A stretch of DNA of 64,000 nucleotides. Origin: Vicinamibacterales bacterium. Lineage in GTDB: Bacteria > Acidobacteriota > Vicinamibacteria > Vicinamibacterales > JAENWD01. Positions 46,637 to 64,000 of the stretch are shown piece after piece. The stretch covers positions 19,291-83,290 of the forward strand of contig DASVDJ010000159.1 of NCBI GenBank assembly GCA_036381155.1, written 5' to 3'. Within the stretch, counting starts at the first letter, position 1. The number at the start of each line of letters is the position of its first letter. Both the position numbers and the translations under genes were made by a program. Under the pieces are notes generated by a model that worked only from the letters and a program-made list of their open reading frames with translations, was not told the DNA's origin and did no database searches.

Positions 46637-49600
46637 ATGCTCCGTTTCTGTGCGTGGAATTGCGTGCGAATAGCCGTCGCCGCGCTGGCCGTACTCTGGT
46701 GTTCGGCGCCACCGGCCGCCGCCCAGGCGGTGTACGGCAGCATCAGCGGAACCGTTGTCGACGAGAGCGGTGCCGTCCTCCCCGGCGTCACCATCACGAT
46801 TACCAGCCTCGAGCGCAAGACCGTCGATACGGTCGTCACCAACGAAGCCGGCTTCTTCCTCCGCGAGCGCCTGCTGCCGGGCACCTACGAGGTGAAGGCG
46901 GAGCTCGCAAGCTTCAAGACCGCCATCGTGCCCGAGGTCGTCGTGCGCGTCGACACGCAGACGCCGCTGAGCTTCCGGCTCGAGGTGGGCGCGATCGCCG
47001 AGACCGTCGAGGTCACCGGCGGGTCGCCACTGCTCAAGACCGACCGCGCCGACGTCGCGACCACGTTCGACGAGCGCCAGCTCACCGATCTCCCCGTCGT
47101 CGACCGCAACTTCACGAAATTCATCCTGCTGACCCCCGGCACGCAGCAGCTCGGCTGGCAGCACGCGGCCAGCGAGAACCCGCAGGGCTCCGTGCAGACG
47201 ATGGTCAACGGGCAGCATTTCAGCGGGACGGGGTACCAGCTGGACGGCACCGAGAACCGTGACCCGATTCTCGGCATCATCGTCATCAACCCGAACCTCG
47301 ACGCCATCGGCGAGTCGAAGATCACGTCGCAGAACTACGACGCCGAGTTCGGCCAGGCGATCGCGGGCGTCGTCTCGGTGCAGACCAAGTCGGGCAGCAA
47401 CGAGTTCCGTGGCAGTGCGTTCGAGTTCTGGCAGGGGGACAAGTTCCAGGCGCGCAATCCGTTCTCGCAGGCGCTGCCGGATCCGCTGACCGGGCGCTTC
47501 ATCCCCGAGACCAGCAAGCACCAGTTCGGCGGCACGTTCGGCGGGCCGATCTCGCGGAACCGGACCTTCTTCTTCGGCGCGTATCAGGGGCAGCGGCAGA
47601 CGCAGGGCGGGTCGCGCCTGCTGACCGTGCCGACCGCCGCGGCACGGACGGGCGACCTGAGCGCGTACGGCATCGACATCTTCGACCCGGCCAGCGGCGC
47701 GCGTCCCGAGGACCGCGTGCAGTTCCCGGGCAACGTCATCCCGCAGAACCGGCTGTCGCCGCAGGCGCTGGCGCTGCTCAACCTGATCCCGCTGCCGAAC
47801 GCGCCGGGCGTGGAGAACGGCACGCGCGAGAACTACATCGCCAGCGGCAGCGAGACCTTCGACGGGAACCAGTTCGACGTCCGGATCGACCACCGGCTGA
47901 GCGCCGACGCGAACCTGTTCGGACGCTACTCGCTCGCCGACTACCTGCGTGACGGGCCGACGGCGTTCGGCCAGGGCGGCGGCCCCGAGTTCGTCAGCCT
48001 GGGCGGCGTCTCGGACGTGCGCAACCAGAGCCTGGCCTTCGGCTACGACCGGACCCTGTCGCCGACCCTGCTCGCCGACTTCCGGTTCGGGTGGTTCCGC
48101 TACGACGTCGACGTGCTGCCGTTCGACTTCGGGACGACGCCGGCGGCGGATGCGGGCATCCCGGGCCTGAACCTCGACACGACGTTCACGAGCGGTCTGC
48201 CGGCGATCTTCGTCGAGGGCATCGGCGGGTTCAACGCCGGGTCGGGGCTCGGCGTGAACCGTTGCAACTGCCCGCTCGACCAGGACGAACAGCAGTGGCA
48301 GGTGGTCGGCAACGTCACGAAGCTCTGGGGCAACCACACGTTCAAGTTCGGCGTCGACGTCCGGCGCGCGTACAACCTGCGGGTGCCGAGCGACGCGCAC
48401 CGGTCGGGCGAGCTGACGTTCAACACCGACCGGACGCGTGGTCCGTCGGGCGGCGGCATGGGGCTGGCGACGTTCCTGCTGGGTGACGTCACGCGGCTGG
48501 CGCGCTACGTCAGCACCAGCACGAACGCGCGCGAGCGGCAGTGGCGCCACTTCTACTACGCGCAGGACACGTGGCGACCGACGCCGCGCCTGACCCTGAA
48601 CTACGGCCTGCGGCTCGACGTCATCAACCCGCAGACCGTCAACGAGCCGGGCAACGGCGGCTGGCTCGACCTGACGACCGGCGAGATCCTCGTCGCCGGC
48701 GTCGGCGGGATCGACCTGGCGGGCAACGTCGAGAACCGGCTGAACTGGGCGCCGCGGCTGGGGGCGTCGTTCAACCTCGACGAGCGCACCGTCATCCGCG
48801 CCGGCTACGGCCGCAGCTACGACATCGGCGTGTTCGGGTCGCTCTTCGGCCACAGCGTCACGCAGAACCTGCCGGTGCTGGCGTTCCAGGAGCTGCGCGG
48901 CGCGGAGAACTTCGACGCGGCGTTCAACCTGGCCCAGGGGCCGAGCGCGCCGGTGTTCCCCGAGGTGCCCGGCAACGGGCGGATCCGCCTGCCCAACGGC
49001 ATCAACACCCGGGCGCTGCCGACGAAGCAGCGGCCGCCGGCCGTCGATGCCTTCAACGTCACGCTGCAGCGGCAGCTGACCGACACGATGGCGGTGGAGA
49101 TCGGGTACGTCGGCAACCGCGGCCGGCGGGTCTTCGCCGGCGACGGGCCGGAGGTGAACGCCAACGAGCCGACGCTCGAGGGCTTCGCGCAGGGCGTGCC
49201 GCGCAACGAGCGGCTGCCGTTCTTCGCGCGGTCCGACGGCACGATCAACCGGACGCCGTACCTGGGGCTCGGCGGCGGGTTCGGATGGACGCAGGGCATC
49301 GGGTACTTCTGCAACTGCGCCAACAACTGGTACGACTCGCTGCAGACGCGCCTCGACAAGCGCTTCTCGAACGGCTACGCCGTGCAGGTGAACTACACCT
49401 GGCAGCGGGCGCGCGGCGAGGGCGGCAGCTACTTCTTCTGGGACCGCACGCTCGAGCGCGGCGTCCAGGACTGGGACCGCACCCACATCCTGAACGCGAC
49501 GCTCGTCTGGGAGCTGCCGTTCGGGCGTGACAAGCGGTGGGGCGCGGACTGGTCGACCGCCATGGATCTGGTGCTCGGCGGCTGGCAGTTCAACGCCACC

Positions 49601-50059
49601 CACACGATCCAGAGCGGGCTGCCGTTCAACGTCACCTACGCCGACGCGGGCGCGGATCGGGACGTCGGCCCCAACCGGCCGAACCTGATTGGCGATCCGG
49701 AGGGCCCGAAGACGCGTGACCAGTGGTTCAACACGGCGCCCATCGGCTCCCCGAACAGCGCCTTCGCGCGGCCGGCGCCGGGCACGTTCGGCAACCTCGA
49801 ACGCAACGCGCTGCGCGGGCCGTACTACCGGCGCACCGACGCGTCGCTGTTCAAGCACTTCCGGCTTGGCGGCAACCGCGATCTGGAGGTCCGCATCGAG
49901 GCCGTGAACCTGTTCAACGTCGTCAATCTCGGCAACCCGGACAGCGAGATCGGCACGGAGAACAGCCCGCGGCCGAACGCCGGGCGTATCAGCTCCACGG
50001 CGTACGGCGGGCTTGACCCGCAGCGGAACCTGCAGTTCGCGGTGAAGTTCAGGTTCTGA
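46637..50059 (+). CDS. TonB-dependent receptor with N-terminal carboxypeptidase-regulatory-like domain
   Basis: Trimmed to MLRFCAW at 46637. GSISGTVVDESGAVLPGVTITIT..TNEAGFF is CarboxypepD_reg-like. The C-terminus is ...LQFAVKFRF, a terminal aromatic. Confidence 0.85.
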   Translation: MLRFCAWNCVRIAVAALAVLWCSAPPAAAQAVYGSISGTVVDESGAVLPGVTITITSLERKTVDTVVTNEAGFFLRERLLPGTYEVKAELASFKTAIVPEVVVRVDTQTPLSFRLEVGAIAETVEVTGGSPLLKTDRADVATTFDERQLTDLPVVDRNFTKFILLTPGTQQLGWQHAASENPQGSVQTMVNGQHFSGTGYQLDGTENRDPILGIIVINPNLDAIGESKITSQNYDAEFGQAIAGVVSVQTKSGSNEFRGSAFEFWQGDKFQARNPFSQALPDPLTGRFIPETSKHQFGGTFGGPISRNRTFFFGAYQGQRQTQGGSRLLTVPTAAARTGDLSAYGIDIFDPASGARPEDRVQFPGNVIPQNRLSPQALALLNLIPLPNAPGVENGTRENYIASGSETFDGNQFDVRIDHRLSADANLFGRYSLADYLRDGPTAFGQGGGPEFVSLGGVSDVRNQSLAFGYDRTLSPTLLADFRFGWFRYDVDVLPFDFGTTPAADAGIPGLNLDTTFTSGLPAIFVEGIGGFNAGSGLGVNRCNCPLDQDEQQWQVVGNVTKLWGNHTFKFGVDVRRAYNLRVPSDAHRSGELTFNTDRTRGPSGGGMGLATFLLGDVTRLARYVSTSTNARERQWRHFYYAQDTWRPTPRLTLNYGLRLDVINPQTVNEPGNGGWLDLTTGEILVAGVGGIDLAGNVENRLNWAPRLGASFNLDERTVIRAGYGRSYDIGVFGSLFGHSVTQNLPVLAFQELRGAENFDAAFNLAQGPSAPVFPEVPGNGRIRLPNGINTRALPTKQRPPAVDAFNVTLQRQLTDTMAVEIGYVGNRGRRVFAGDGPEVNANEPTLEGFAQGVPRNERLPFFARSDGTINRTPYLGLGGGFGWTQGIGYFCNCANNWYDSLQTRLDKRFSNGYAVQVNYTWQRARGEGGSYFFWDRTLERGVQDWDRTHILNATLVWELPFGRDKRWGADWSTAMDLVLGGWQFNATHTIQSGLPFNVTYADAGADRDVGPNRPNLIGDPEGPKTRDQWFNTAPIGSPNSAFARPAPGTFGNLERNALRGPYYRRTDASLFKHFRLGGNRDLEVRIEAVNLFNVVNLGNPDSEIGTENSPRPNAGRISSTAYGGLDPQRNLQFAVKFRF

Positions 50060-50064
50060 CGCAG

Positions 50065-50114
50065 GGCCGAACTCCAGTTCGGCCGAACCCGTAGGGCCGA
50101 ACTTCAGTTCGGCC
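50065..50114. repeat. two REP-like hairpins after the receptor gene
   Basis: ggccgaactccagttcggcc at 50065-50084 and ggccgaacttcagttcggcc at 50095-50114. Confidence 0.75.
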
Positions 50115-50204
50115 AGACCTTGGCCGACGGCGGACAGAGAACCGACGCATGCAGGGCGGGCGCTATCAGCCCCGCCCGCATGCGCCCGCTTCCTCTGCCA
50201 TCCC

Positions 50205-50234
50205 CTTGCAGACCCCCGCTGTACCCGGTATACT
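50205..50234 (+). promoter_or_regulatory. candidate promoter of the tRNA gene
   Basis: TTGCAG (50205-50210), 18-nt spacer, TATACT (50229-50234), 12 nt before the tRNA 5' end. Confidence 0.5.
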
Positions 50235-50245
50235 GAATCGGTTGA

Positions 50246-51912
<1,667 letters not shown>

Positions 51913-51916
<4 letters not shown>

Positions 51917-52110
51917 CGTAGGGTCTCGTCGAGTTTGCCGCCCTGCTCGGCCAGTGCTCGCTCGAACGTCTCCCGGGCAGCTTCACGAGCCAGGATCTGA
52001 ACAAGTGTCCGGAGCATCTCCGTCTCTCGATCGAGCGCCTCGTCCTTCCGGTCACGACGACCGGCTCCGACGAGGCTCGCTGCACGATCTGGCTTCTCCC
52101 GACGAGTCAT
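51913..52110 (-). CDS. small helical hypothetical protein (possible directionality factor)
   Basis: 65 aa. ATGA overlap with the recombinase start. Weak RBS. Confidence 0.4.
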
Positions 52111-52135
52111 AATAGCGCCGATCCGTTACCTGCGC

Positions 52136-52555
52136 TCAGCCCTCGCGCAACTCCTTGGCCACACAACGTGAGTTTCGCGGGGCGCGGAACACATCTCGAA
52201 CACCCAGGGAGGGCAAGTCCAGCACCTTAGCGTCCGCCAAGTTCGGCTCGTGCCGCACTGCCTGCCAACCGGCGTGCATGAGGCCTGGTGGGAGCACCTC
52301 AATGGCATCTCCGCCCGCAGCGGGCAAGGAAGTTGTCACGGCCGCTGTTGCTTGCCGTGGAAACCGATGCACCTCGCGTCTGCGTGGGTCGAGGCTCGTT
52401 CCGGTCTTCGTCGTCGCGTGCTGGTTCCTTGACGAGACGTGTAGCCGTCTGGCAGCGCTCACCTGTGCTCGGTTTCCGTCGGGAGCGGGGGCACGTCCGT
52501 CGCCGATCATTCGCGTAACGTCGGCAGCATTGTCGATTGCTCCTTCGTAGTCCAC
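52136..52555 (-). CDS. hypothetical protein
   Basis: Track ORF 52136..52714. I prefer the in-frame GTG at 52555, preceded by AGGAGGAGA. The ATG at 52579 is immediately flanked by the pyrimidine arm of a hairpin. Composition is unremarkable, so coding status is uncertain. Confidence 0.3.
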   Translation of the reverse strand: MDYEGAIDNAADVTRMIGDGRAPAPDGNRAQVSAARRLHVSSRNQHATTKTGTSLDPRRREVHRFPRQATAAVTTSLPAAGGDAIEVLPPGLMHAGWQAVRHEPNLADAKVLDLPSLGVRDVFRAPRNSRCVAKELREG

Positions 52556-52579
52556 CGGTCTCCTCCTCTTGCGCGGCAT

Positions 52580-52620
52580 CTTCGAGGGAAGGCTCGATCG
52601 CTGCCCGCCTTCCCTCGAAG
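52580..52620 (-). promoter_or_regulatory. perfect 13-bp-stem hairpin 12 nt after SpoVG-like gene 1
   Basis: CTTCGAGGGAAGG (52580-52592), 15-nt loop, CCTTCCCTCGAAG (52608-52620). Confidence 0.7.
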
Positions 52621-52631
52621 GACGCCAGTGT

Positions 52632-52934
52632 TCAGGTGTCCGATTGACCGCTCTCCGCGGCGTAGGCCTGCAGCACGAGCTGACGGAGGCGGTCCTCGGC
52701 GCTCCGGTCGTCAACGGCGCGGATCAGTGAAAAGTTGCGCCGCTCTCCGTTCACCATGAACGGGCGCGCCGGGAAGGTCACATTGCGGCCCGATCCGTTG
52801 CGCTGTCGCCAGATGGCGAAGCCGAGCAGCTTCAGACCATCGAGCTCTCCGCCGATGAACTGCAGCTCGGCATCCGCCAGCTTGTCCTGCGGTGTGTTCT
52901 TCTCGTTGCGAACGATATTGACCGTGATCGTCAT
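52632..52934 (-). CDS. SpoVG-like small nucleic-acid-binding protein, paralog 1 (assignment by pattern only)
   Basis: 100 aa with an AAGGAG RBS. The layout KLADAELQF..GLKLLGFAIW..GRNVTFPARPF..GERRNFSLIR..LRQLVLQAY parallels SpoVG (beta-strands, then the P-containing loop, then the helix). Paralogous to 56387..56710. Confidence 0.5.
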   Translation of the reverse strand: MTITVNIVRNEKNTPQDKLADAELQFIGGELDGLKLLGFAIWRQRNGSGRNVTFPARPFMVNGERRNFSLIRAVDDRSAEDRLRQLVLQAYAAESGQSDT

Positions 52935-52976
52935 GGGGTCTGCTCCTTACATGCGCTCGCATCGGCGAGCCGGGCG

Positions 52977-53402
52977 TTATGCGTGTGCGGCGTGCGCCTG
53001 CTCCTCTTCGAGCGGTGCGCCGAGCCGCTGCCACAGCCAGTTCTGCAAGGTGTTCAAGCCGACGAGCACCGGATCCGCGGGTACGAACAGGTGCCCGTGC
53101 TCGCGGCAGCGCCGCTTCTGCCACGAACGTTCCGTGGCGTCGACGAGAATCAGCCGCGCCTTCGTCCTGGCGCGACACGCATCGAAGACGATCTCGTCGA
53201 GGGCCAGTCCCGACACGTCCGCGAGCGGCGCGGTGTAGAGCGTCATCGTGGACGGAGCATCGAGGGCGGCCGGTGCGGTCGTGATGTGGGCGTAATAGAG
53301 GCGTGTGTGCCGGCCGATCGTCACCCCGATGCTGGGTGTGATCGACGTCGTGTTCATCGCTGGTCCTTCCTTTCGAATCGAGCCCAACGTCCAAGCGGTC
53401 AT
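52977..53402 (-). CDS. hypothetical protein
   Basis: 141 aa from the ATG at 53402, which makes an ATGA overlap with the upstream small ORF. Alternatively 126 aa from the ATG at 53357, which has an AAGGAAGGA RBS. Confidence 0.5.
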   Translation of the reverse strand: MTAWTLGSIRKEGPAMNTTSITPSIGVTIGRHTRLYYAHITTAPAALDAPSTMTLYTAPLADVSGLALDEIVFDACRARTKARLILVDATERSWQKRRCREHGHLFVPADPVLVGLNTLQNWLWQRLGAPLEEEQAHAAHA

Positions 53403-53581
53403 GAACCTGCCGGGCCATCACGTAATTGCGAGAAGCCGGGCTCGACCGAGGGCCTCGTCAAGGGCGCCAGCCGCGCGGAGCGCGGTCGGAGCCAGGCGAT
53501 GCAGGCGGAGATCCTTGACGAGCCCGAGGCGAGCCGGACAATCGGACCCGTGATGGCCCATAGCAGACAGCCGTCCGTCAT
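53399..53581 (-). CDS. possible 60-aa ORF
   Basis: GAAGGAG lies 7 nt upstream of the ATG at 53581. Its stop overlaps the ATG at 53402. No recognisable features. Confidence 0.25.
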   Translation of the reverse strand: MTDGCLLWAITGPIVRLASGSSRISACIAWLRPRSARLAPLTRPSVEPGFSQLRDGPAGS

Positions 53582-53826
53582 CGGGCGGTTCTCCTTCGCA
53601 GGGAGCGAGACCCGCGCGCACACGAGCCTCGCCCCCGGTTGTCCATGCGAAGCACGATGCTTCGCGCGGGCCTCAACGGTGTTCTGGTTCTCAGAGAGCC
53701 GCTGGGCTTGATGGCGCAAGCGGCGATGCAGGCGATCTCGGTCGCCTCAGGAACGGGCGGGGTTGAACCCGCACCCGCACATCTGGTGGGCGCCGCGGGG
53801 CTGTGCCCGCACGGCGGATGACCCGG

Positions 53827-54933
53827 TCAGTGGACCGTGGTCAGGAGTCGGCTGGCGGCGCGGTCGAGTGCGAATCGGTGATCCTGCCACGGGGTGCGCT
53901 GACTGAGTCGCGTTAACCCTTGCACATACCCCCAGACGGATCGGGGATTCGTCTCGTACTGCTCGGCAAGCGCGTAGGCGTGTGCAGCCTGCTTGCGCGA
54001 GAGCTCCACTCGCGCGGTAACGGCATCGAGCACCGCGTCTCGCGTCGGCCCCAGCTCGTGGGTCGTGGCCCGGAGGAGCAGCGTCCGATCGTCGGCGGCG
54101 CCTGTGTCGAGCGCCGAACGCACCGCCTCCAGTGAGTCGGTCCACGCCGCGTGAATGGACCCACCTACGTGCCGGCGCCGAAAGCTGGCGACGTGCCGGA
54201 AGCCCCAGATGATGTTGTTGCCGCACACGGCGCGGTAGAGAAACACATCCAGGGTCAGGGCGGCGGCGCCCACGTCGCTGTTCCGGATGATGAACCCGCG
54301 GAACAACCCTCCGTGCGACCGGTCGGTGGGATCGTCGAGATCACGGTTGCCGTCGATCAGGAAGAGAAACATGTCTCGATCTCCCAGATACGCGCCGGAG
54401 GGCACGAGCTCGGCCCCGTACACGCCATCCTTGTACCCGAGCGGCAGGTGCCACGCCGGATGAGCGGCCATGAGGTCGAGCACCCGGGCGGCCAGGTCGT
54501 CGTGGTGCACCCGCGCGTACCTCGGCGAGGTGATCGCGTGGATGGTCCACGGCGCTTCGCGATCCGCGAGGACTTGATGCGCCTCGCGGTGTGGCCGCTC
54601 GAGGCCCACGTTGATCGCGCTCGACGCGATCGGCGCGGGCAGTGTCCGGAGGTACTTCGGCGGCGCGCCGACAATCGCGGCAAGCTGCTCGAAGCTCCAG
54701 TGCGTCAGCGGAGCGGTGCGACCCGACGCCTCTCGCACGACGAGGTCGTCGTCTGTTTCCGCCGCTGTTCGAACCTGGTGAGTCTCGATGGTGCGCTCTT
54801 CGGTGCGTGCCCGCCGGACGCGAGCCGCCTCGTAGAGCGCCGAGACGCTGGCGAACCGTTCGTCGGGCGGCCGCGTGGCCCATTCCCGATGCGCGGTATA
54901 CGCCGTGACCGCAGATACACCAGTCCTCTGCAT
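53827..54933 (-). CDS. DUF932-like (phage/plasmid-like) protein
   Basis: 368 aa with an AAAGGAG RBS. GFIIRNSDVGAAALTLDVFLYRAVCGNNIIWG resembles the NSEVG...C.N motif I associate with DUF932. Confidence 0.6.
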   Translation of the reverse strand: MQRTGVSAVTAYTAHREWATRPPDERFASVSALYEAARVRRARTEERTIETHQVRTAAETDDDLVVREASGRTAPLTHWSFEQLAAIVGAPPKYLRTLPAPIASSAINVGLERPHREAHQVLADREAPWTIHAITSPRYARVHHDDLAARVLDLMAAHPAWHLPLGYKDGVYGAELVPSGAYLGDRDMFLFLIDGNRDLDDPTDRSHGGLFRGFIIRNSDVGAAALTLDVFLYRAVCGNNIIWGFRHVASFRRRHVGGSIHAAWTDSLEAVRSALDTGAADDRTLLLRATTHELGPTRDAVLDAVTARVELSRKQAAHAYALAEQYETNPRSVWGYVQGLTRLSQRTPWQDHRFALDRAASRLLTTVH

Positions 54934-55056
54934 ACAGTGCTCCTTTCTGTGCCCTGAGGGCGATCGAGTGAGGAAGCATCTCCACGTCGCTGGACGATGC
55001 GTGGAGGGGTGGCCGGGATGGCCACAGGCGAGAAAACTGGAGACGCTACGGTGGGC

Positions 55057-56235
55057 TCATGCCGGCTCCTTTCCGTTTTCGAGGGTCGGCTGTCCGTCGG
55101 CCTCGTGATTCGATGCCAGGTATTCGCGCCGTAACAGCACGGGACCGATCTTCCTGGTCACGACGAGGGTGAGCTGTGTCAGACGCGGGACGCCGGGATC
55201 CCGTCGCCAGATGAACTCGCGGAGGTGCAGGGCCACGTGGGCGTCCGGCACGAGGGCCTTGACCTGCTGCAGCAACGACCATTGGTCCTTCGTCATCGTT
55301 CGCACCGGATGGCCGAAGACCACGAAATCCCGTTCGGTCACGTTGGATCGCTTCCGACGGAGCCATTGCTCGACGTGCGCGCGCATGCGCTCGACACCAT
55401 CATGCGTGTAGCGCGGCCGGTCCGCGACCGCGCGGAACGCCTGGTCGGCCATGGCCTCCTTGATCTCCGACGGAGGGAGCAGCCTGGCCGCCAGCCGCGC
55501 CTGCTGGTCCGGTGTACCGTGCTTGTTGATCCACGCGGTCATCGCCTGCCACCGTTCATCGCGCAGGCGCACGTGCTCAGCGCGCTCGCGGGCACGCCGT
55601 TCGCGTGCCGCGTTGACATCGGCCCGAAACCGTCGCAGGGCCTCGCGCGGCACGTCACGGGCGGGCCCAGTGTCGAGCTTCCGGTCGAAGCGGAGGTGCC
55701 CGTACGGGGTCGCAAGATAACAGCGTCTGGGCGTCGGCGAGGGGTGAGCGAGCGCCCGCTGCGTCGGATCGGCGAGAAAGGCCAGAGCGATCTCGGTGCG
55801 ACGAACCCGATCGGTGTCCGCGCGCTGGTCGCGCGCGATCGTCCGCTGCGCATGGTACGCGCGCTCGAGCTGATGATTGCGTGCGGCCAGCCGCAGCAGC
55901 TCGTCGATCGTGGGCGGCTCGTCGTAGATCGGCGCCCTGTCGATGCAGATGACGCGCTGATCCGCGTCGAGCTCGTATCGGGGGCGGAGCTTGAGGCGTG
56001 CCACGCCGTGGCCGTTGACGGTGACAAGGTGCAGGCGATTCGCCGGGACCTCGAACGTGATGCGCTGCACCGCGCGTCCGTCGCCGCCGGCAAGCAGCGA
56101 GGCCTTCCGGCCCGCCTCGGACAGGTGGTACACGGCGGTCACGGTCAATGCCTGAGCCGTCGCTGGACCGGGCAGTGTCGTCGGTGTGTTGACCTGCTCT
56201 GAATGAACCAGCACGGGGCGGGCCAAGGATTCCAT
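55057..56235 (-). CDS. hypothetical protein, 392 aa
   Basis: Long ORF co-directional with its neighbours. Arg-rich helical central region. No family recognised. Confidence 0.6.
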   Translation of the reverse strand: MESLARPVLVHSEQVNTPTTLPGPATAQALTVTAVYHLSEAGRKASLLAGGDGRAVQRITFEVPANRLHLVTVNGHGVARLKLRPRYELDADQRVICIDRAPIYDEPPTIDELLRLAARNHQLERAYHAQRTIARDQRADTDRVRRTEIALAFLADPTQRALAHPSPTPRRCYLATPYGHLRFDRKLDTGPARDVPREALRRFRADVNAARERRARERAEHVRLRDERWQAMTAWINKHGTPDQQARLAARLLPPSEIKEAMADQAFRAVADRPRYTHDGVERMRAHVEQWLRRKRSNVTERDFVVFGHPVRTMTKDQWSLLQQVKALVPDAHVALHLREFIWRRDPGVPRLTQLTLVVTRKIGPVLLRREYLASNHEADGQPTLENGKEPA

Positions 56236-56300
56236 GACGCGATCCTTTCCGGTCAGCGGCTTTGCTGAAACCTCACGTGACGGAAACGGGGGCTGTGCCC

Positions 56301-56325
56301 CCTCGAGGCCCTGAGGGCGTCGAGG
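56301..56325 (-). promoter_or_regulatory. two-tier stem-loop, copy b
   Basis: Minus-sense CCUCG-AC-GCCC-UCA-GGGC-CU-CGAGG. Confidence 0.6.
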
Positions 56326-56346
56326 GGGAGACAGCCGGGCGGTCGG

Positions 56347-56371
56347 GGTCGAGGGCCTGAGGCCGACGACC
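56347..56371 (-). promoter_or_regulatory. two-tier stem-loop, copy c
   Basis: Minus-sense GGUCG-UC-GGCC-UCA-GGCC-CU-CGACC. Confidence 0.6.
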
Positions 56372-56386
56372 GGTCACCCTGAGGAT

Positions 56387-56710
56387 TCACTCGGTCTGCA
56401 TCTCGACGCGGCTGAACGCGTCGAGGATGTAGTCCCGAATGGCCTCCTGCGCGCTGGCATCCCCGTTGGCGGGACGGAGCAGCGCGAAGCTCCGGCGTTC
56501 TCCGTTGACGGAGTACTGCCGGGCCGGGAACGTGACGTTCCTCCCTCCGGTCCGTCGTTCCCAGATGGCGAAGCCGATCAGCTTGAGCCCGCTCAGCGGG
56601 CCGGCGCCGGCTTCGAAGGTCAGTTCCGCATCGGCCAGCTTCCCCGGAGGGTTGCCGGACGTGTTGGGAACGACCCGTACGGACACGAGTTCCGTCTTGC
56701 CTTTGGTCAT
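56387..56710 (-). CDS. SpoVG-like small nucleic-acid-binding protein, paralog 2 (assignment by pattern only)
   Basis: Track ORF trimmed to MTKGKTELVSV at 56710 with a GGAGGA RBS. KLADAELTF..GLKLIGFAIW..GRNVTFPARQY..GERRSFALLR aligns residue for residue with 52632..52934. Confidence 0.55.
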   Translation of the reverse strand: MTKGKTELVSVRVVPNTSGNPPGKLADAELTFEAGAGPLSGLKLIGFAIWERRTGGRNVTFPARQYSVNGERRSFALLRPANGDASAQEAIRDYILDAFSRVEMQTE

Positions 56711-56727
56711 GGAGTCCTCCATTTGGA

Positions 56728-56752
56728 CGCCGAGGGCCTGAGACCGACGGCG
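56728..56752 (-). promoter_or_regulatory. two-tier stem-loop, copy d, in the 5' leader of SpoVG-like gene 2
   Basis: Minus-sense CGCCG-UC-GGUC-UCA-GGCC-CU-CGGCG. The inner stem keeps pairing through a G.U wobble only on the minus strand. Confidence 0.6.
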
Positions 56753-56880
56753 TAGGCGAAGGTTCCGGCGGATCCTGGGGATGCCGCGGAACGGGGTGGG
56801 ACGCACGGCTCTGGGAGCGCGTGCGTGCTGACGGGCAGAGCCGTCTGTATACCTATAAGAACCCGGTCACGACGGCAAAA

Positions 56881-58382
56881 CTAACGGGAGGTTACCAGAC
56901 GAACGCGACGCTGCTCAGTCAGCGATTGCCGATAGAAGGAGCGGGCCAGCGCACACGCTCGCGTCAACTTCGAGCGCTGCCAGATCGACCTCGTGTCGAG
57001 GGTCCCGGAGGACAGGCTCCTGCGTGATGCCTGCGCGATCGGCGCGATGCTTCGACGATGAGGGCAGTCAGCGGCGACAGGCCGGCCGTGAGCGCACCCA
57101 GCCGTCAACGCTGATGACCACGTCAGCCGGAATCTGCCTGCGGGAACGAGTGACAGAAGCGCAGGGCCAGCGAGAAACGCCGCCGCCGCACCAAGCGCGC
57201 CGCCGGCGAGCGAGAGCACGGCGCCTTCTGCGAGGAACTGGCGAACGAGCCGTGCGCGGCTCGCGCCCAGGGCCAGCCGCGTGGCGATCTCGTGCCGGCG
57301 CGAGATGGCCCGCATCAGCAGCAGGTTGGCTACGTTCGCGCAGCCGATCAAGAGGACGAGCGCCACGGCACCGCCGACCACGAGCAGCGGCAGGCGGACA
57401 TCGCTCAACATGGCGTCGTGCAGCAAGGTCACCCGCGCGATGAGATCGCGGGGCCGGTCGGGATTTGGCGGCAGGTTCCGTATCCAGGTTTCCAGGTCGG
57501 CCTGAGCCTGTTCGCGTGTGATGCCTGGTTTCACCCGTCCGATCACCGGCCTGATGACCCCGAGGCCTGGGCCGGGGCGGATCGCGTGCGGGATCCAATA
57601 CTCGGCGTTGGCAGGATACGAGAAGCCGCGCGGAAGAATGCCGACGATGCAATAGAGCGATCCGTTGAGCGTAATCGTCGTGTTGACGATGCGCGGATCG
57701 CCGCCGAACTGCCGCTGCCAGAGGCTGTCGGAGATCAGCACCGTGTTCTATCCCGGCTGTTCGTCTTCGGCGCCGAACGTGCGCCCCATCGCGGCGCCGA
57801 CGCCGAGAACCCGGAAGAAGTCGACGGTGACCGCGGCGCCCGTGAGTTGTGTGGCCGCGCCCGCACCCGCCAATGTCGATTCTGCCTGGGAGATCATGGC
57901 GATCGACTCGAAGGTACGGTTGGCGTCGCGGAAGTCCACGTAGTAGCCTTGCTCGCACATGCCCGGGCAGAGCCAGGCTGGTCTAAGACTCTAGACTAGG
58001 CGACGTGTACGAGATTGCGAACAGCCGGTCGGCGTCGGGGCAGGGAAGCGGCCGGAGGAGAACGCCATGCACGACGGTGAACATGGCGGTTGTTGCGCCG
58101 ATGCCGCGGGCCAGCGCGGCCGTCGTGAACGCCGGGCTGCGCCGCATCGCGCGTACCGCGTGACGCACGTCCCGCGCGAGATCATCGAGCCACGGCAGCC
58201 CGCGCTGATCGCGCAGCGCCTCCATCGCCGCGAGCTGTCCGCCCGCCTTAGTGAGTGCGGGGCGGCCCGCTTCGGCGGCCCATCTCCGCATGCAGTCGCG
58301 GCTACTCGGCCAGATCTTCGTCGCTCCGTCGCGGGCGTACCACCCCGAGGAGGCGAGCGCTCCATTCACGCAGCCAGCGCAT
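56881..58382 (-). pseudogene. decayed, 3'-truncated ADOP-type (FtsX/MacB-like) ABC permease
   Basis: Collinear fragments lie in different frames. MRWLREWSARLLG..DEDLAE is the C-terminal end of track ORF 58302..58709. LARDVRHAVRAMRRSPAFT...LLRPLPCPDADRL is in 57983..58369. MacB_PCD-like fragments are in 57748..57960 and 56881..57741. The FtsX helices are broken by further frameshifts near 57060-57140. The second half of the duplicated permease is absent. Confidence 0.75.
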
Positions 58383-58613
58383 GTCGGGTCCCTGCGCGTT
58401 GCCCCTTAACGGTGCATGGAAGATGCGCGTCTTCCCAGTCACGGCGGCGCAGCAGTTTATTAACCGTGCCAATGGAGCGTCCGCCAACTGTATCTGAATG
58501 CCAAATAGAAGCGGGAGTCGGTTCCTTGGCCACGCCGGCGTCTCCGGATGTGGGACCGGAGGTGACCCGAAGCGCGCGTTGACAGCCATTCCGGCCGTAC
58601 CGACTCGCGAAAG

Positions 58614-58694
58614 CCCCTTGCAACGACCCGCGAACGCCCCTTGCACCGACACCCGGAAGCTGCCTTGCACCAGTCGTGAACCCCGTGTACAAGG
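58614..58694 (+). repeat. three direct CCTTGCAMC repeats plus an inverted copy upstream of the 804-aa gene
   Basis: ccccttgcaacgac at 58614-58627, ccccttgcaccgac at 58637-58650, tgccttgcaccagt at 58661-58674 (23-24 nt spacing), then gtgtacaagg at 58685-58694. Confidence 0.6.
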
Positions 58695-58903
58695 TCGCGA
58701 GATGGCCATATGCTCGTCGTTGCTGGCGCTCCCCGCAGGCCTCCTGCTGGCAGCGCTGTGCTGGCGGGAGGGCAGGGCATTCGGTCAACCACGAGCGGAA
58801 AATCCCGGGCGCCTCAAGGGTTCGCTCGCTCCGCTCGCTGGCGGCGCGCGCTTGCTCGGCCCGGCGCGCTCCCATCGTACTGGCATTTGCCGGGGATCGA
58901 CGT

Positions 58904-61318
58904 ATGACCGTGAATAGCCTGCGCAAACGCGCATGGCACTTCGGCTTTAGAGTCCGGTTCGGCGTCCGCAAGCTTGTGACTCTTGCGCGCAAAGTGATCC
59001 CGAGTTTCGATGTTGCCCTTCGGGCTGCGCTGTTCGTCGGCACGGCACTTGGTCTTGGGGCATTCATCAACGCCGCCGCCGACCTCAGTCGTCTCACAGC
59101 GGAAACGTTGATCAATGTGCTGATCGCCATGGGGACGATGTTCGGCGGTGTGCTTGCAATCGTGTTTGCATTATCGAGCTTCATGCAACAGAACGCGGCA
59201 GATCTGTACTCATCGCAGTTCTACGAGGTGTACGCTCGGGATTGGCGAGAGAAACTGATCTTCAGTGCGATTGCCGTACTGACGGTTCTTTCCTTCGCGC
59301 TCGCCATTTTTCAGGACACCGCGATCGTCCCGTTGCGACCGTCTTTCTTGGTGTACGTGATCCTGCTTGTAACTGCTGCCGTTTTCGCGCTCGTCGATTG
59401 GCAGTACAAGCTGGTCACCAAGAAGATCAACCCGCTGATCGCCCTGGCGTTTCTCGAACGACAGTGCATGAAGTCTCTTGAGTCCGCACACGATCTCGCT
59501 AAACACCTCGCGTCCTGGCTGCGGATCAGCAATGAACAGCTCACCGAAGAGCAAGCATTGGCTGTCAGTTACAGCCGATTCGTCGCACCGTATCTGACAC
59601 ACGTAGATCGTCAGCTTGATCATCTCACCGAGATTTCGCTCCGGCTGGCCGCGAAAGGCGAGCTGCTGGCGACGCAGAGAGGGCTAGCGAGCGCGCACAA
59701 CGTCTTAGCAAAGTACCTACAATTCCGAAAGGATTCGTCGCTTGCGATACCTGCGGGTCCGTACTTGATGGCGGTTGAAAGCGATAGCCAATGGTTCTTG
59801 GCAAGAACGTTCCAGCGAATTAACACAGCCGGCGAAATGTTGATGGCTCAACGTCAGTCCGCATCGGTTGTTTTCCTCATGGATCTGTACGCTTCGTTGG
59901 CTACGTATGCGAAAGAGGTGCAATTCCTCAATCGCCCCGGTGAAAACCCGATTATCGACCAACTGAGAGGTTACATGAGCGGCCTCTTGGACGCCGCGAT
60001 TCGAGTCGATGATGTGGAGGTCTGTTTTCGAAGCGTCGCTGTGTCACGAGCGATTGGGACTGCGGCGGTTGAGCGCAAGCTCCACTCAGCCACGCGGTGT
60101 GCAGTCTACGGCGACCTTACGAAGGTCGCGATGTGGGCGATCGCAAGCAAGAAGCCCGTGTTTATCGAACACTGCACGGATGCCATGGTTCAGTTGATCG
60201 GCAAGTCAATCAATGACGATGGTTCTGGGCTCGACACCGAGCTGGCCGAAGCGTTCGATCGGCTCACCACGATAACGAGCACGATGTATACGGCTGTATC
60301 CGCCGGACTGGTGCCCAGCGCTATCGACACTCAAATCATGGTTGGTAAGTGTTACGGGCAATTGGCGGCAGTACTCGCGGCCGTGGTTGATCGATACGAA
60401 CGCCTGATAGAGGGACACGAGAAACGAGCGCTGGGGTGGAACCTCGCCGCGTGCTTCAAAGCACTATACCGAAGCCTTCGAGAGATGTCGGAGGTGCTGA
60501 AGAACTGCGACGCTCCGGTCGTGTTCAATATTGCATCCCTGATCGAGGAAATCCTCAAGATGTTGGTTCGCCTCTCGACCGACACGAAGGGGCTACGTGA
60601 GCGCCACGAGTTTGAAAAGCAGTTGAGCTGGTACGTCCACCTGCCGGGTTGGTTTGTAGAGCATGCCAGCAACGTCACGTTAACAGATGCGTTCGACACA
60701 CTGGCCGACATCGGTCCAAAGGTTGGACTCCAGCTTCTGCACCGCAACGCTCCGTCGGACTCCATTGTGAAATGCGCCCAGGCAGCGTTCTCCATAACGA
60801 AACAGATGCTAGCGAAGCTTAAAGGTGGATACGCGTACGCTGAGCCACGTCACATGCTGACGGTGTGCTACTTGGGCATCGTCGCATTGAAACAGGGAGC
60901 CATCGGAAGTGGTGTTGTCCAGGCAATCCTATCGATGGTTCGAGAGTTCGAGGAACTCTACCGCAAGAAGTACTTCAGCACGTTTACACCACCGGCCGGC
61001 AATTACATGGACCCGAGGCCGCAGCAACTGATGGTGGAGGTGCTTCGCTGGAGAAGCGATGTCATTCGTGAGCGATACAACATCCCGCCACTGTTGGACC
61101 GCTCGCGCGACATCGTGCGCCAGATGGTCGACGTTGCTGACATTGATCGGTTCATTTTTGAGGTGTGGCGCATGGTGCCATCAGACAGTCCGATCAAGGC
61201 TGAATTGACGGACCGGCAGCGCCGCCACGTTCTGATGCTGAGATTGTTGCGTCTCTTGAGTGCTGAACTGCAACGGCGGCAGCCCGTAAATGCACCTGCA
61301 CAGACAGACGACGCTTAA
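58904..61318 (+). CDS. orphan 804-aa protein: four N-terminal TM helices plus a long helical cytoplasmic region; no family recognised
   Basis: Track ORF trimmed to MTVNSLRKRAW at 58904 with GGGGA upstream. TM segments: ALFVGTALGLGAFINAAA, LINVLIAMGTMFGGVLAIVFAL, LIFSAIAVLTVLSFALAIF, FLVYVILLVTAAVFALV. Spot GC counts are 48-62% (about mid-50s) against about 70% for the host. It is the only plus-strand gene in the island. Confidence 0.75.
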   Translation: MTVNSLRKRAWHFGFRVRFGVRKLVTLARKVIPSFDVALRAALFVGTALGLGAFINAAADLSRLTAETLINVLIAMGTMFGGVLAIVFALSSFMQQNAADLYSSQFYEVYARDWREKLIFSAIAVLTVLSFALAIFQDTAIVPLRPSFLVYVILLVTAAVFALVDWQYKLVTKKINPLIALAFLERQCMKSLESAHDLAKHLASWLRISNEQLTEEQALAVSYSRFVAPYLTHVDRQLDHLTEISLRLAAKGELLATQRGLASAHNVLAKYLQFRKDSSLAIPAGPYLMAVESDSQWFLARTFQRINTAGEMLMAQRQSASVVFLMDLYASLATYAKEVQFLNRPGENPIIDQLRGYMSGLLDAAIRVDDVEVCFRSVAVSRAIGTAAVERKLHSATRCAVYGDLTKVAMWAIASKKPVFIEHCTDAMVQLIGKSINDDGSGLDTELAEAFDRLTTITSTMYTAVSAGLVPSAIDTQIMVGKCYGQLAAVLAAVVDRYERLIEGHEKRALGWNLAACFKALYRSLREMSEVLKNCDAPVVFNIASLIEEILKMLVRLSTDTKGLRERHEFEKQLSWYVHLPGWFVEHASNVTLTDAFDTLADIGPKVGLQLLHRNAPSDSIVKCAQAAFSITKQMLAKLKGGYAYAEPRHMLTVCYLGIVALKQGAIGSGVVQAILSMVREFEELYRKKYFSTFTPPAGNYMDPRPQQLMVEVLRWRSDVIRERYNIPPLLDRSRDIVRQMVDVADIDRFIFEVWRMVPSDSPIKAELTDRQRRHVLMLRLLRLLSAELQRRQPVNAPAQTDDA

Positions 61319-61586
61319 TTAAACTAAGCTAATCAATTATCGCGAAGTCGTAGCTGAACTTAGAGATGTGTGGGCGCATCAATCGCCTCCTACGGGTGCG
61401 GCGCGCGGAATCCGCTCGCCTCACCGAAGCATCGCAGAGCGCGAAGGCTCGCCTCCTTCCACGGATGAGCTTAGCGTAAACTGATCCCGGCCGCCCAGAG
61501 GGGACGATGCCCCACCGCCTCCGGCGCTGGGTTTTCGACGAGCCGCCGAGAATGGTCGTCGCAGCGGGTGATCTTGGAAACGACCC

Positions 61587-62543
61587 TCAGGTGAGTAGAC
61601 CGCCCCGCGCGAGTCCGCCGATTGGTTCGCGGCCATAGCGTCTCGCCCGCCGCAGCTTGTCCAGTAGTTCCCGCTCGGACCATGGCGGCTGGCATCGAGT
61701 GTTCCAGTCGCTGATCGCACGGAGCGCCTGATCATCTCCAAGCGCGAACCCGCGCACGAGCCGACAGCACACGCGGAACGTGTGGGCGTCGCCGTGCTGA
61801 CCGGCGATGGCCGGCGGCACGCGCTCGAGATATCGGCGCGCCCGGTCCACGGTACTGCGTTCATCGACTCGAAGAGAGGTAGCACGCGCCGGCGCCGGCG
61901 CCCGCACGACTGGCGGCGTCGCGTCGCACCGGGCAGCGTCGCGGGACACTTGCACCGCGGGAAAATCTGGCGGGGTGTACACGCGGTCCAGACGTCCGTA
62001 CTCGACGGTCACGAGGTGAGCGGACGCGTACTTGTGGTTGTTGAAGCCCGGCAGCCGGGTGGTCTGCGTCGCCGGCGTCGCGGCAGGATCCGTATCGAGT
62101 TCGCTGGCGAGCCTTTTCTGGAGCGCCTCGATGCAGTGAGGTTCGAAGGCGGTCACCCGCCAGAAGATGTGAACGCGGTTCGGCGATGAATGCAGGATGT
62201 ACGACGGCTCTGGCAGATCGGATCGGGCGGCGATGCGCGCGAGGACGCCTGGGCCATCACGATCCGCCTCCAGGAACGCATGGCGGATCGCGCCCACGGA
62301 GTCGCGCGTCCGCGTCCGCTTCCATGGCGCAATTGCGTTCACGCCGCAGTACACGTTGAACTTCTGCGAGTTCTTGAATCGGAGCCACGCCTGGAAGCGC
62401 GGATGCATCACCCAGTCGAGCGGCCCGACGCGCTGGGTGACCTGTCCCGTCTCGTACGACTTCAGGAAGATCGCGACCCAATCGTCGGGTTCGAACGCGG
62501 TCTGAAGGAATCTGAGCGGCGCCTCAGGGTCGATGGCAGCCAA
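61587..62543 (-). CDS. RepB-family DNA primase-like protein with PriCT-like C-terminal domain
   Basis: NVYCGVN...IRHAFLEADRD...PEPSYILHSSPNRVHIFWRV...TRLPGFNNHK follows the RepB-primase pattern. The C-terminal GDAHTFRVCCRLVRGFALGDDQALRAISDWNTRCQPPWSEREL is primase-C-terminal-like. Confidence 0.6.
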   Translation of the reverse strand: MAAIDPEAPLRFLQTAFEPDDWVAIFLKSYETGQVTQRVGPLDWVMHPRFQAWLRFKNSQKFNVYCGVNAIAPWKRTRTRDSVGAIRHAFLEADRDGPGVLARIAARSDLPEPSYILHSSPNRVHIFWRVTAFEPHCIEALQKRLASELDTDPAATPATQTTRLPGFNNHKYASAHLVTVEYGRLDRVYTPPDFPAVQVSRDAARCDATPPVVRAPAPARATSLRVDERSTVDRARRYLERVPPAIAGQHGDAHTFRVCCRLVRGFALGDDQALRAISDWNTRCQPPWSERELLDKLRRARRYGREPIGGLARGGLLT

Positions 62544-62556
62544 GGTTCGATCCCCG

Positions 62557-63039
62557 CTATTGCTTCGTCAGCACGACCTGACCGGCGAACACCGCCGCGT
62601 TGCAGTCGGTGCCCGTGAAGTCGGCTTCAATCCGGGTGGCCTGCGCAGTGCCACTGCTCCCGAACGTCCCCGTGCAACCGCGCGGTGACGAGAACGTTCC
62701 CTGCGTGCTGATCCCCGTAGGCGGGGTGTTGCCTGGCGAGATCGCCGTCGTGGCAGTAGTCGTCATGTTCAGCCAGGGATGTTCCGACCGGATCGTGCTG
62801 TTGAACGACTGACGGTTCGAGTTGGGCATCACCTCGAACGTCCACGTGATCGGCCCGCTCGTGGGCGGAGCCGCACCTGGGGCATGCGGGTTGACCTGGA
62901 TTGTTACCGTCCCCCGCCACGTACCCGAGAGGAAGGACTGCTCCGACGGTGACGTCGGCGACCCCTCCCGCCCACACGCGGCAAGAGCCATCAAAGCGAT
63001 CAGCGGCCACCACGCGGCCCGACGTCTCCAGTGCGTCAT
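62557..63039 (-). CDS. lipoprotein of unknown function
   Basis: ATG at 63039 with a GGAGGTGA RBS; an upstream GTG at 63051 is also possible. Lipobox is LMALAAC. Confidence 0.6.
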   Translation of the reverse strand: MTHWRRRAAWWPLIALMALAACGREGSPTSPSEQSFLSGTWRGTVTIQVNPHAPGAAPPTSGPITWTFEVMPNSNRQSFNSTIRSEHPWLNMTTTATTAISPGNTPPTGISTQGTFSSPRGCTGTFGSSGTAQATRIEADFTGTDCNAAVFAGQVVLTKQ

Positions 63040-63047
63040 CGTCGGAC

Positions 63048-64000
63048 TCACCTCCGAAACGAGCGCTCATCCCGGCGCGCGTCTGCCGCCGCGCCGTCCA
63101 GGGTCTCTAGCTCGAAGCGTTCCGACGCAGGATCGTACCCGCGAATCCCGACAACTTCCGTCACCTTCCGAAGCCCATCCACACGTGCAATGTGCACGAC
63201 GAGGTGGATCGCCAGCGAGATGGCTTCGCGGACGCTGCGATGCGGCAGGCCCACGTTCGCCGTGAGTACGCAGTGGGCGAGGCGTGTGAGCGCCTGCTCC
63301 GCTGAGTTGGCGTGGATGGTGCTCAAGCTGCCGAGGTGGCCGGTGTTCAACGCCTGGAGCAGGTCGAACGCTTCGGGACCGCGCACCTCGCCGACAAGAA
63401 TCCGATCCGGGCGGTGACGTAGCGTGGCACGGACGAGATCGGAAATCGTCACGGCCGGCACTGGGGTCTCCTGGCCGAGTGGGATCTGAGCACGTCGGGC
63501 CTCGAACCGGACGAGGTTCGGCTTGTCGATGAGAATCTCCGAGGTCTCCTCGATGAGCACGATGCGATCGCCCTCAGGAATCTTCGCGGCGAGCGCGTTG
63601 AGCAGTGTCGTCTTGCCGGTACCGGTCCCTCCTGAGATGAGGATGTTCCTTCGGTCGTCGACCGCACGCCGGAGCCGTGCGGCGACGTCCTCACTGAGCG
63701 TGCCGACTGAAACCAGCTCGTCCAGCGTGTACCGGTGCGCGAACTTCCGCACGGTCAGCGTCGGTCCGTCGACGGAGCAGGGCGGAAACATTGCCGCCAC
63801 TCGTGACCCGTCTTCGAGGCGCGCGTCCAGCATCGGCTGGTGATCGGAGATCTCGTCCCCGCATGCTCTCGCGATGTTCTTGATGGCCACGGTCAGGTTC
63901 CGGACCTCCAGCGTCCGATCGGGCACCGCCTCCACGAGGCCGTGCCGCTCGACGAACACCCGCGTGCCGCCTCCGTTCACCATCACCTCGGTGACGCTCG
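63048..64000 (-). CDS. VirB11/CpaF(TadA)-type secretion ATPase, 5' end probably outside window
   Basis: Walker A is GGTGTGKTT. RILVGEVRGPEAFDLLQALNTGHLGSLSTIHANS is present. The frame is still open upstream of the ATG at 63986 (..SVTEVMVNGG). Confidence 0.85.
   Translation of the reverse strand, partial: SVTEVMVNGGGTRVFVERHGLVEAVPDRTLEVRNLTVAIKNIARACGDEISDHQPMLDARLEDGSRVAAMFPPCSVDGPTLTVRKFAHRYTLDELVSVGTLSEDVAARLRRAVDDRRNILISGGTGTGKTTLLNALAAKIPEGDRIVLIEETSEILIDKPNLVRFEARRAQIPLGQETPVPAVTISDLVRATLRHRPDRILVGEVRGPEAFDLLQALNTGHLGSLSTIHANSAEQALTRLAHCVLTANVGLPHRSVREAISLAIHLVVHIARVDGLRKVTEVVGIRGYDPASERFELETLDGAAADARRDERSFRR

Follow-up and report, generated by a model that had tools for sequence, protein, structure and literature searches.

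Hairpins with a common apical module, supported by compensatory change, throughout the spacers of an operon on a widespread Acidobacteriota mobile element

Introduction

The locus described here raises the question of what a set of small stem-loops is doing in the non-coding segments of an operon: whether they are copies of one repeat, and whether they act as messenger RNA (mRNA), as single-stranded DNA or as double-stranded palindromes. It lies in 64,000 nucleotides (nt) of contig DASVDJ010000159.1 from a Vicinamibacterales bacterium (assembly GCA_036381155.1), hereafter the window, whose coordinates are used throughout. An earlier description made without database searches (the sequence-only reading) had pointed to three 25-nt two-tier stem-loops around a gene for a 107-amino-acid (aa) protein, which it called ‘SpoVG-like gene 2’. 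Here we find at least 10 hairpins, all on the gene-sense strand, that fill every non-coding segment of a conserved operon headed by a RepB-type primase; the operon belongs to an integrative mobile element of the Vicinamibacterales (Acidobacteriota), inserted here at tRNA-Met. The hairpins are selected structures, not chance palindromes or sequence-specific operators. We designate them Y, Z, A and U in the leader of the 107-aa gene, D1 and D2 between this gene and the 392-aa gene that follows, P0, P1 and P2 between the latter and a DUF932 gene, and E past the DUF932 gene (Table 1).

Structured leaders and intercistronic mRNA hairpins are known as a kind; what is new is the specific module that these hairpins share, its density, and its confinement to one widespread mobile element of Acidobacteriota, a phylum that is dominant in soil and whose gene regulation and mobile elements are little known. 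The array is unusual in that one apical module is reused in every operon spacer, beside both ribosome-binding sites and stop codons, which points to a dedicated reader, be it a protein or a nuclease. If they are mRNA elements, the hairpins constitute a structured-RNA family that is well supported and has not been described before, its dozens of divergent examples being rich in compensatory change; such a family would be a candidate for Rfam and a marker for the integrative element that carries it.

Separate hairpins with one apical module

The three 25-nt sequences stand on the minus strand with the coordinates and letters first given for them: the first (56325-56301) is the top of D2, the second (56371-56347) is D1, and the third (56752-56728), which does end 17 nt upstream of the ATG at 56710, is U. 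Their common 19-nt core, CGNCGSYCTCAGGSCCTCG, has three matches in the 64-kb window, all on the minus strand, where 0.01 would be expected from dinucleotide-preserving shuffles (none of 100 shuffles reached three), a number beyond chance. Each of the three hairpins forms part of the minimum-free-energy fold of its spacer; compared with shuffles, these folds have z-scores of -3.8 and -3.6. The pairing proposed for them is confirmed, but the 25-nt limits are not: the outer stem of U has 6 base pairs (bp; 56753-56727), and the first copy is the upper part of a 46-nt three-tier hairpin, 56336-56291, built of GGCUGU/ACAGCC, CCCCCUCGA/UCGAGGGGG and GCCC/GGGC. Nor is the UC/CU internal loop invariant, as had been supposed, since in the first copy an A pairs with a U and a single C.C mismatch is left. 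Two partial copies had also been listed. That at 54961-54951 is real and conserved in orthologues (P2 in our designation); at 53744-53751 the gene strand reads CCUGAGGC, which has no stem and is not a copy. Beyond these, Z, A, P1 and E are further, full members on the same strand.

From 59 distinct U sequences we made a covariance model and searched 80 genome loci with it. All 37 significant matches fell at the position of U, on the gene strand, and copies of the D1 or D2 type were not detected in other loci. The description as three copies of one 25-nt repeat was therefore rejected: each of U, D1 and D2 is a positional element of its own, and that their cores are nearly identical is a peculiarity of this lineage. 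Within the window the model scored U at 44.5 bits, hairpin E second best at 22.1 bits (E-value 0.007) and D1 at 21.4 bits (E-value 0.01), and the first copy, in D2, stayed at noise level (13.6 bits, E-value 0.8).

The failure of the U model to find D1 and D2 in other loci turned the search to what the hairpins have in common. U, D1, D2, Z, A, P1, P2 and E share an apical module. Above a lower stem there is an unpaired C, either bulged or in a C.C mismatch and in some cases widened to UC/CU, and then an upper stem of 4 bp closed by a triloop of sequence NCA. The unpaired C and the C and A of the loop are conserved while the stems vary. The strict UC/CU form is found in U in most loci, in D1 in four (L004, L010, L092, L098) and in D2 in one (L081). 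When 160 related loci, the best 160 of at least 964, were scanned for the module, it occurred 94 times on the gene strand versus twice on the other, or 56 versus two among distinct sequences, and the 56 carry 24 different upper stems. The background, taken from 1.04 Mb of viral contigs that encode paralogues of the 107-aa protein, was nine and four on the two strands. The scan found six modules on the minus strand of the island in the window (Z, U, D1, D2, P1, E) versus one elsewhere on either strand; A and P2, in which the module was seen by eye, are absent from these matches because their lower stems are short. Neither the U model nor the module scan found the motif in the 50 kb of host DNA in the window.

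Compensatory change in orthologous loci

The 74 distinct orthologous leaders that we extracted from these loci have a common architecture, in which a conserved promoter-like block is followed by Y, Z, a nearly invariant single-stranded UCCCACCC, A, U, a spacer of 4-12 nt, and the Shine–Dalgarno (SD) sequence and ATG; U thus lies directly 5' of the SD. The 3' arm of Z, CCGTGCG, is likewise nearly invariant in the alignment. RNAalifold recovered the structure only in part from the MAFFT alignment because of indels, and the structure was therefore specified by hand and covariation counted on MAFFT alignments that had not been fitted to any structure. Counted in this way, nine of the 10 pairs of U have changed on both sides, with 90.7% of cells paired, and nine of the 13 pairs of A, with 84.9% paired, while a slid-partner control for the two together gave at most 43.5%. 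For D1 and D2 the figures are 26 of 32 pairs and 70.8% of cells, against at most 54.6% when slid; the D1 helix contributes 12 of 13 pairs, and D2, in the long orthologue class, 10 of 13 and four of six. The observed covariation score was reached by none of 500 shuffles for A and U and none of 500 for D1 and D2. The extent of the change can be read from U itself, whose outer stem occurs as CGCCG/CGGCG, CUGCC/GGCAG, CACCG/CGGUG, CAUCG/CGAUG and CGCCA/UGGCG, and whose inner stem occurs as GGUC/GAUC, GGCC/GGCC, GAUC/GAUC, GAGC/GCUC and GGU/ACC.

Positions are conserved as well. A hairpin at the D1 position lies within the first 85 nt past the stop codon in all 72 orthologous spacers, and with 13-17 bp in most loci it much exceeds D1 of the window (9 bp) in strength; the longer orthologous spacers carry the three-tier D2 in addition to D1. 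The spacer before DUF932 has kept P0, P1 and P2, and many P2 orthologues have a short lower stem and an unpaired C. P0 is conserved in sequence while the other hairpins covary, and so it may be a different kind of site.

The further copies, the compensatory change in homologous elements, the orientation of the module and an excess of G.U over A.C pairs, about 2.5 to one on the sense strand (below), bear out the central proposal of the sequence-only reading, namely that these are structures selected on the gene-sense strand and not simple DNA palindromes.

In one subgroup of loci (L087, L094, L103, L008, L010), TTGACA-17 nt-TATACG/TATTGA is found just 5' of Z, ~130-170 nt upstream of the 107-aa gene, and this sigma-70-like promoter sequence takes the place of the usual upstream block and hairpin Y. 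Where it reads TTGACA-17 nt-TATACG, such a promoter would put Z, A and U inside the transcript, giving a 5' untranslated region (UTR) of ~125 nt.

RNA or single-stranded DNA

On balance we favour the interpretation that the hairpins are transcribed, cis-acting mRNA structures that serve in mRNA stability, insulation of ribosome-binding sites and attenuation, perhaps with one common binding factor. At the paired positions of U, read on the sense strand, G.U occurs 54 times versus 23 for A.C, and the sense folds hold more G.U pairs than the antisense folds in both U (51 vs 18) and A (25 vs 9). The pyrimidine mismatches UC/CU of U are conserved and asymmetric, and, not being complementary, they break dyad symmetry. 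The hairpins also keep close to the signals of translation: U and P2 end 4-12 nt before an SD, and D1 and E start ~10-25 nt past stop codons. D1, D2 and E follow a coding sequence (CDS), and start codons are preceded by Z, A, U, P1 and P2.

Several observations weigh on the other side. U and A show a moderate G.U excess and D1 a weak one (87 vs 68), and the sense folds are no more stable than the antisense folds. As the genes of the element are all co-oriented, the strand bias that agrees with a transcribed element would fit a strand-specific single-stranded DNA equally well, and the gene next upstream of the leader is that of a RepB-type primase. Both the transcript start site and the 3' ends are ones that we infer. 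A scan for the terminator consensus found no terminator at D1, D2 or E in the window, which for D1 and D2 tells against a role in termination; a U run follows only about a fifth of D2 orthologues, TTT being present within 12 nt past D2 in 12 of 56 (21%) versus a background of 4.9%, a fourfold excess that itself speaks for the mRNA interpretation, and past D1 in five of 72. The sequence directly 3' of D2 in the window is CCCCGUUUCC. Finally, the candidate binding protein gains no support from its phage-encoded paralogues, which are not accompanied by the hairpins.

If the hairpins do act in mRNA, Z, A and U would make up the ~125-nt 5' UTR, with the SD left single-stranded 3' of U. The last of these would shield the 5' side of the cistron and keep upstream RNA from pairing with the ribosome-binding site, a role that P2 would play for DUF932. 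D1, D2 and E would be barriers to 3' decay and partial, U-tract-poor terminators, the terminator component being weakly supported; by this proposal, the 107-aa gene would be expressed above the genes downstream of it. That one apical module is common to most of the hairpins probably means that a single trans-acting reader, a protein or a ribonuclease, recognizes them. We also considered an anti-SD switch, in which CCUC of the 3' arm of U pairs with GGAGG, and rejected it, since many of the 75 leaders, though not most, show CA, CG or another dinucleotide in the place of CU.

Candidate readers and the SpoVG question

The reader might be encoded by the element. Such a factor, possibly one of the two SpoVG-fold proteins or the 392-aa protein, would read the module at 10 or more sites of one transcript, as a protein-RNA regulatory code not known before, and so coordinate translation, processing or antitermination of the whole operon at host entry and exit, an extension of the mRNA interpretation that we put forward as tentative and rather doubtful. 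A closely related alternative, which overlaps the mRNA interpretation but makes the trans factor its core, is that the hairpins are recognition sites for an element-encoded RNA-binding protein, such as the 107-aa protein or its 100-aa paralogue with their possible SpoVG fold, in the manner of nut/boxB sites or coat-protein operators; binding at U would then control translation of the protein's own gene, and binding at D1, D2, the P hairpins and E would control read-through or processing. We hold this to be unlikely, although the sharing of one module among different positions and 24 different stem sequences would suit it, as would the recurrence of the UC/CU or C.C loop in U, D1 and D2 of the loci named above and the retention of the unpaired C and the loop C and A beside variable stems. 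The U covariance model, by contrast, misses D1 and D2 in other loci, and the proposed reader itself meets with difficulties.

Binding to nucleic acids has been reported for SpoVG proteins. The 107-aa protein is rich in arginine, and its AlphaFold2 model (pLDDT 88) matched, in a fold search of BFVD, a ‘Putative SpoVG protein’ of the Clostridium phage phiCP7R (TM-score 0.65, probability 1.00, E = 3e-3), which was the only meaningful fold match. Against this stand the sequence comparisons and the PDB fold search. More than 8000 homologues were found, none with a Pfam domain, and the protein itself had no match in Pfam even at E ≤ 10; a profile search of PDB sequences gave nothing relevant; Foldseek of the model against PDB returned no match at E ≤ 0.001, and SpoVG was not in the top 50 matches that it listed; and hhalign against Bacillus subtilis SpoVG, for which an approximate sequence was used, reported a probability of 0.5%. 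The name ‘SpoVG-like’ thus has one viral-library match behind it and finds support at the level of the predicted fold only; membership in the SpoVG family is not borne out by sequence or by the PDB fold search.

On 69 viral contigs of IMG/VR (L161-L229, the longest 83 kb) there are genes for relatives of the 107-aa protein (47-73% identity), and 11 of these contigs encode DUF932 as well, so the protein family is common in soil phages as well as in the integrative element. The number of hairpins on these 69 contigs does not exceed background, and just one adjoins the gene, which speaks against the protein as the reader. More distant paralogues differ upstream of the gene. Some (L042-L079, e.g. 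L062, L063, L049, L068) are preceded by a sigma-54-type sequence, TGGCNC-N5-TTGCW, ~40-60 nt upstream of the start, at loci without the hairpin leader, and those of another subgroup (L039, L054, L056, L066, L077) have a different hairpin, GGUUCC...GGAACC, in place of the leader.

Priming sites, origins of transfer and palindromes

Alternatively, the hairpins might work as DNA, in a single-stranded form of the element that arises in conjugative transfer or in replication of the rolling-circle type, for example as priming signals for the RepB-type primase, and the part of the leader formed by Z and CCCACCCC could be an origin of transfer (oriT). In its favour, intact copies of the element have the RepB-primase-domain gene immediately before the leader, a signal in single-stranded DNA would be expected to show the strand bias, and DNA hairpins tolerate G.T wobbles; we nevertheless consider it quite improbable. 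The RepB' primase of RSF1010 recognizes 21-nt hairpins in its single-strand initiation (ssi) sites, ssiA and ssiB. These 40-nt sites, one on each strand within the origin oriV, combine the 21-nt hairpin with a specific flank of 6 nt on its 5' side and a GTG start on its 3' side (PMC8567376). The hairpins described here resemble these in being G+C-rich, ~21 nt long, strand-specific and neighbours of a RepB-type primase gene, but unlike them adjoin translation signals. Membership in the ssi class was rejected: U, D1, D2 and E have flanks without relation to one another, and at least 10 copies lie on one strand over 3 kb of operon spacers, a number unlike any known priming or nick signal. The tie of the hairpins to SD sequences and stop codons is a further point against action on single-stranded DNA.

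Two more considerations concern transfer. The strand transferred in F-like leading regions is the template, whereas the hairpins are found on the sense strand. The most conserved sequence of the leader, CCGUGCG-UCCCACCCC (56793-56810, minus strand), is found at and just 3' of a covarying hairpin, its conserved part being single-stranded, which suits the DNA-level interpretation; it resembles what we take to be the nick region of RSF1010-type origins of transfer, GTGCG|CCCT, and an oriT could overlap the leader.

That the hairpins are double-stranded operator palindromes for a dimeric regulator, selfish palindromes like the repetitive extragenic palindromic (REP) sequences, or chance complementarity at 70% G+C is very improbable and largely refuted by covariation and orientation, for although they are intergenic inverted repeats near a putative promoter, and high G+C makes short palindromes common, their stems covary rather than conserve sequence, the opposite of a sequence-specific operator, UC/CU breaks dyad symmetry, the module is oriented 94 to two, the core is found three times for 0.01 expected, and there are no copies in the 50 kb of flanking host DNA and none above background in 1 Mb of other contigs.

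Comparison with known families and systems

The sequence-only reading knew of no described element with this shape, and none has come to light: cmscan with Rfam 15 over 49000-64000, on both strands and at E ≤ 5, gave no match at any hairpin, only tRNA-Met and a chance group II intron fragment in the 100-aa gene (18.3 bits vs a gathering score of 49, E = 2). We found no relevant literature on DUF932 with a serine recombinase, on SpoVG with DUF932, or on mobile elements of Vicinamibacter.

Among known mRNA structures, intercistronic stem-loops that act in stability or attenuation are found in Rhodobacter puf and, as REP hairpins, in Escherichia coli malEFG, and U-tract-poor ‘I-shaped’ terminators have been proposed for high-G+C bacteria. 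Like these, the hairpins of the element are G+C-rich, lie on the gene-sense strand between a stop codon and the next ribosome-binding site, and could raise expression of the upstream cistron. Unlike them, they share a module, occur in every spacer and also directly 5' of the SD, are confined to one mobile element rather than spread genome-wide, and lack a general U-tract. Assignment to the REP sequences or the bacterial interspersed mosaic elements (BIME) was rejected on the strength of the 24 upper-stem types, the 94-to-two orientation and the lack of copies in the 50 kb of host DNA, itself part of one genome.

The RNase III sites of the T7 early genes are likewise irregular two-tier hairpins with an internal loop, one to each spacer of a mobile element's operon, all on the sense strand and alike in shape and not in sequence. 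Their stems, however, have ~20 bp or more, as against 10 bp in U and 9 bp in D1 of the window, and the conserved triloop and unpaired C have no counterpart in T7; set against the two helical turns of the T7 type, D2 reaches 19 bp in three tiers and orthologous D1 13-17 bp. The lambda nut/boxB sites and Qbeta-type operators share with the present hairpins a short stem, a defined loop, an unpaired nucleotide and a position in a leader or past an upstream gene, and could like them be read by a small basic protein. In a lambda nut site, boxB has a GNRA-like loop of 5 nt and is accompanied by a linear boxA, whereas the loops here have 3 nt, mostly NCA, and no common linear element precedes the copies; a lambda-type nut was rejected on these grounds. 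Coat-protein operators differ as well, their hairpin having a bulged A (that of Qbeta, a 3-nt loop and a bulged base) and overlapping the start codon. An integron attC site consists of an imperfect hairpin flanked by R''/R' core sites (RYYYAAC ... GTTRRRY) and is used by the tyrosine integrase IntI; attC was rejected, as no core sites surround U, D1 or D2 and the recombinase of the element is a large serine recombinase.

The array, the operon and the surrounding DNA

The hairpins and the genes of the element that they accompany are listed in Table 1.

Table 1. Hairpins, other leader features and genes of the element in the window; unpaired nucleotides of hairpins are in lower case.
Feature	Position	Strand	Sequence or domains	Remarks
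RepB-primase-like gene	61587-62543	-	RepB-primase domain	
Conserved start of leader, putative promoter	56848-56885	-	GTTAGTTTTGCC...TTCTTATAGGTATAC	Conservation begins here in an alignment of 70 upstream regions
Hairpin Y	56830-56845	-	GACGG-cucugc-CCGUC	Minimum-free-energy fold; GACGG..CCGTC conserved in most orthologues
Hairpin Z	56801-56826	-	ACGCACG-c-GCUC-cca-GAGC-CGUGCGU	C bulge, 4-bp stem, CCA triloop; minimum-free-energy fold
C-rich single-stranded linker	56793-56800	-	(U)CCCACCCC	Sole invariant leader columns outside the ATG in 75 sequences
Hairpin A	56762-56792	-	GUUCCG-CGG-c-AUCC-cca-GGAU-CCG-c-CGGAAC	Nine of 13 pairs changed on both sides
Hairpin U	56727-56753	-	ACGCCG-uc-GGUC-uca-GGCC-cu-CGGCGU	Ends 6 nt before SD GGAGGA (56720-56715)
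107-aa protein CDS (‘SpoVG-like gene 2’)	56387-56710	-		ATG at 56710; SD GGAGGA at 56720-56715
Hairpin D1	56347-56371	-	GGUCG-uc-GGCC-uca-GGCC-cu-CGACC	Begins 15 nt past the stop codon of the 107-aa gene
Hairpin D2	56291-56336	-	GGCUGU-cu-CCCCCUCGA-c-GCCC-uca-GGGC-c-UCGAGGGGG-c-ACAGCC	Three tiers; minimum-free-energy fold
392-aa protein CDS	55057-56235	-		No known domain
Hairpin P0	55009-55025	-	GUGGCC-auccc-GGCCAC	Conserved at sequence level in essentially all 40 orthologous spacers (392-aa gene to DUF932)
Hairpin P1	54980-55006	-	CUCCACG-ca-UCGU-cca-GCGA-CGUGGAG	Upper stem covaries: UCGU/GCGA, CCGU/GCGG, CCGC/GCGG
Hairpin P2	54951-54961	-	GCCC-uca-GGGC	4 nt before the DUF932 SD AAAGGAG; position conserved in orthologues
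DUF932 CDS, 368 aa	53827-54933	-	Pfam PF06067, E = 1.5e-5; PHROG 1362, E = 4.9e-25	
Hairpin E	53791-53816	-	CGCCGUG-c-GGGC-aca-GCCC-CGCGGCG	Begins 10 nt past the DUF932 stop codon; comparable hairpins in orthologues
Large serine recombinase gene, 545 aa	50279-51916	-	PF00239, PF07508, PF13408	
tRNA-Met	50246-50322	+		Overlaps the 3' end of the large serine recombinase gene

On the minus strand from 56.9 kb, the leader is followed by the 107-aa gene, the 392-aa gene, DUF932, a spacer, a 141-aa gene, the gene for the 100-aa paralogue of the 107-aa protein, and the recombinase. Dozens of contigs from the Vicinamibacterales and from other Acidobacteriota have this gene order, including the 392-aa gene after the 107-aa gene; at least 429 relatives of the 107-aa gene are confirmed among genome contigs and at least 535 among metagenome contigs. 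The window has 70% G+C overall and 60-68% from ~50 kb onward. Where tRNA-Met and the recombinase gene overlap, the element probably has its integration site and one of its ends; the C-terminus of the recombinase (..GFEPATFGL) is encoded by the complement of the 3' part of tRNA-Met.

In intact copies of the element the RepB-primase-domain gene ends ~100-250 nt upstream of the leader. In the window, a segment of ~4.7 kb (56888-61586) separates the two; it contains fragments of a MacB/FtsX permease (56881-58369) and a plus-strand open reading frame of 880 aa without known domain, has ~60% G+C, and looks like an insertion or rearrangement within the element. At the other end of the array, orthologous loci (L001-L008 and others) have a stretch of ~1 kb between DUF932 and the 141-aa gene with several more module hairpins, 100-1300 nt past DUF932, such as CCGCAGC-c-GCGG-aca-CCGC-c-GCUGUGG. 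None of the window's proteins has a homologue encoded in this stretch, which may thus be non-coding and structured over a long distance.

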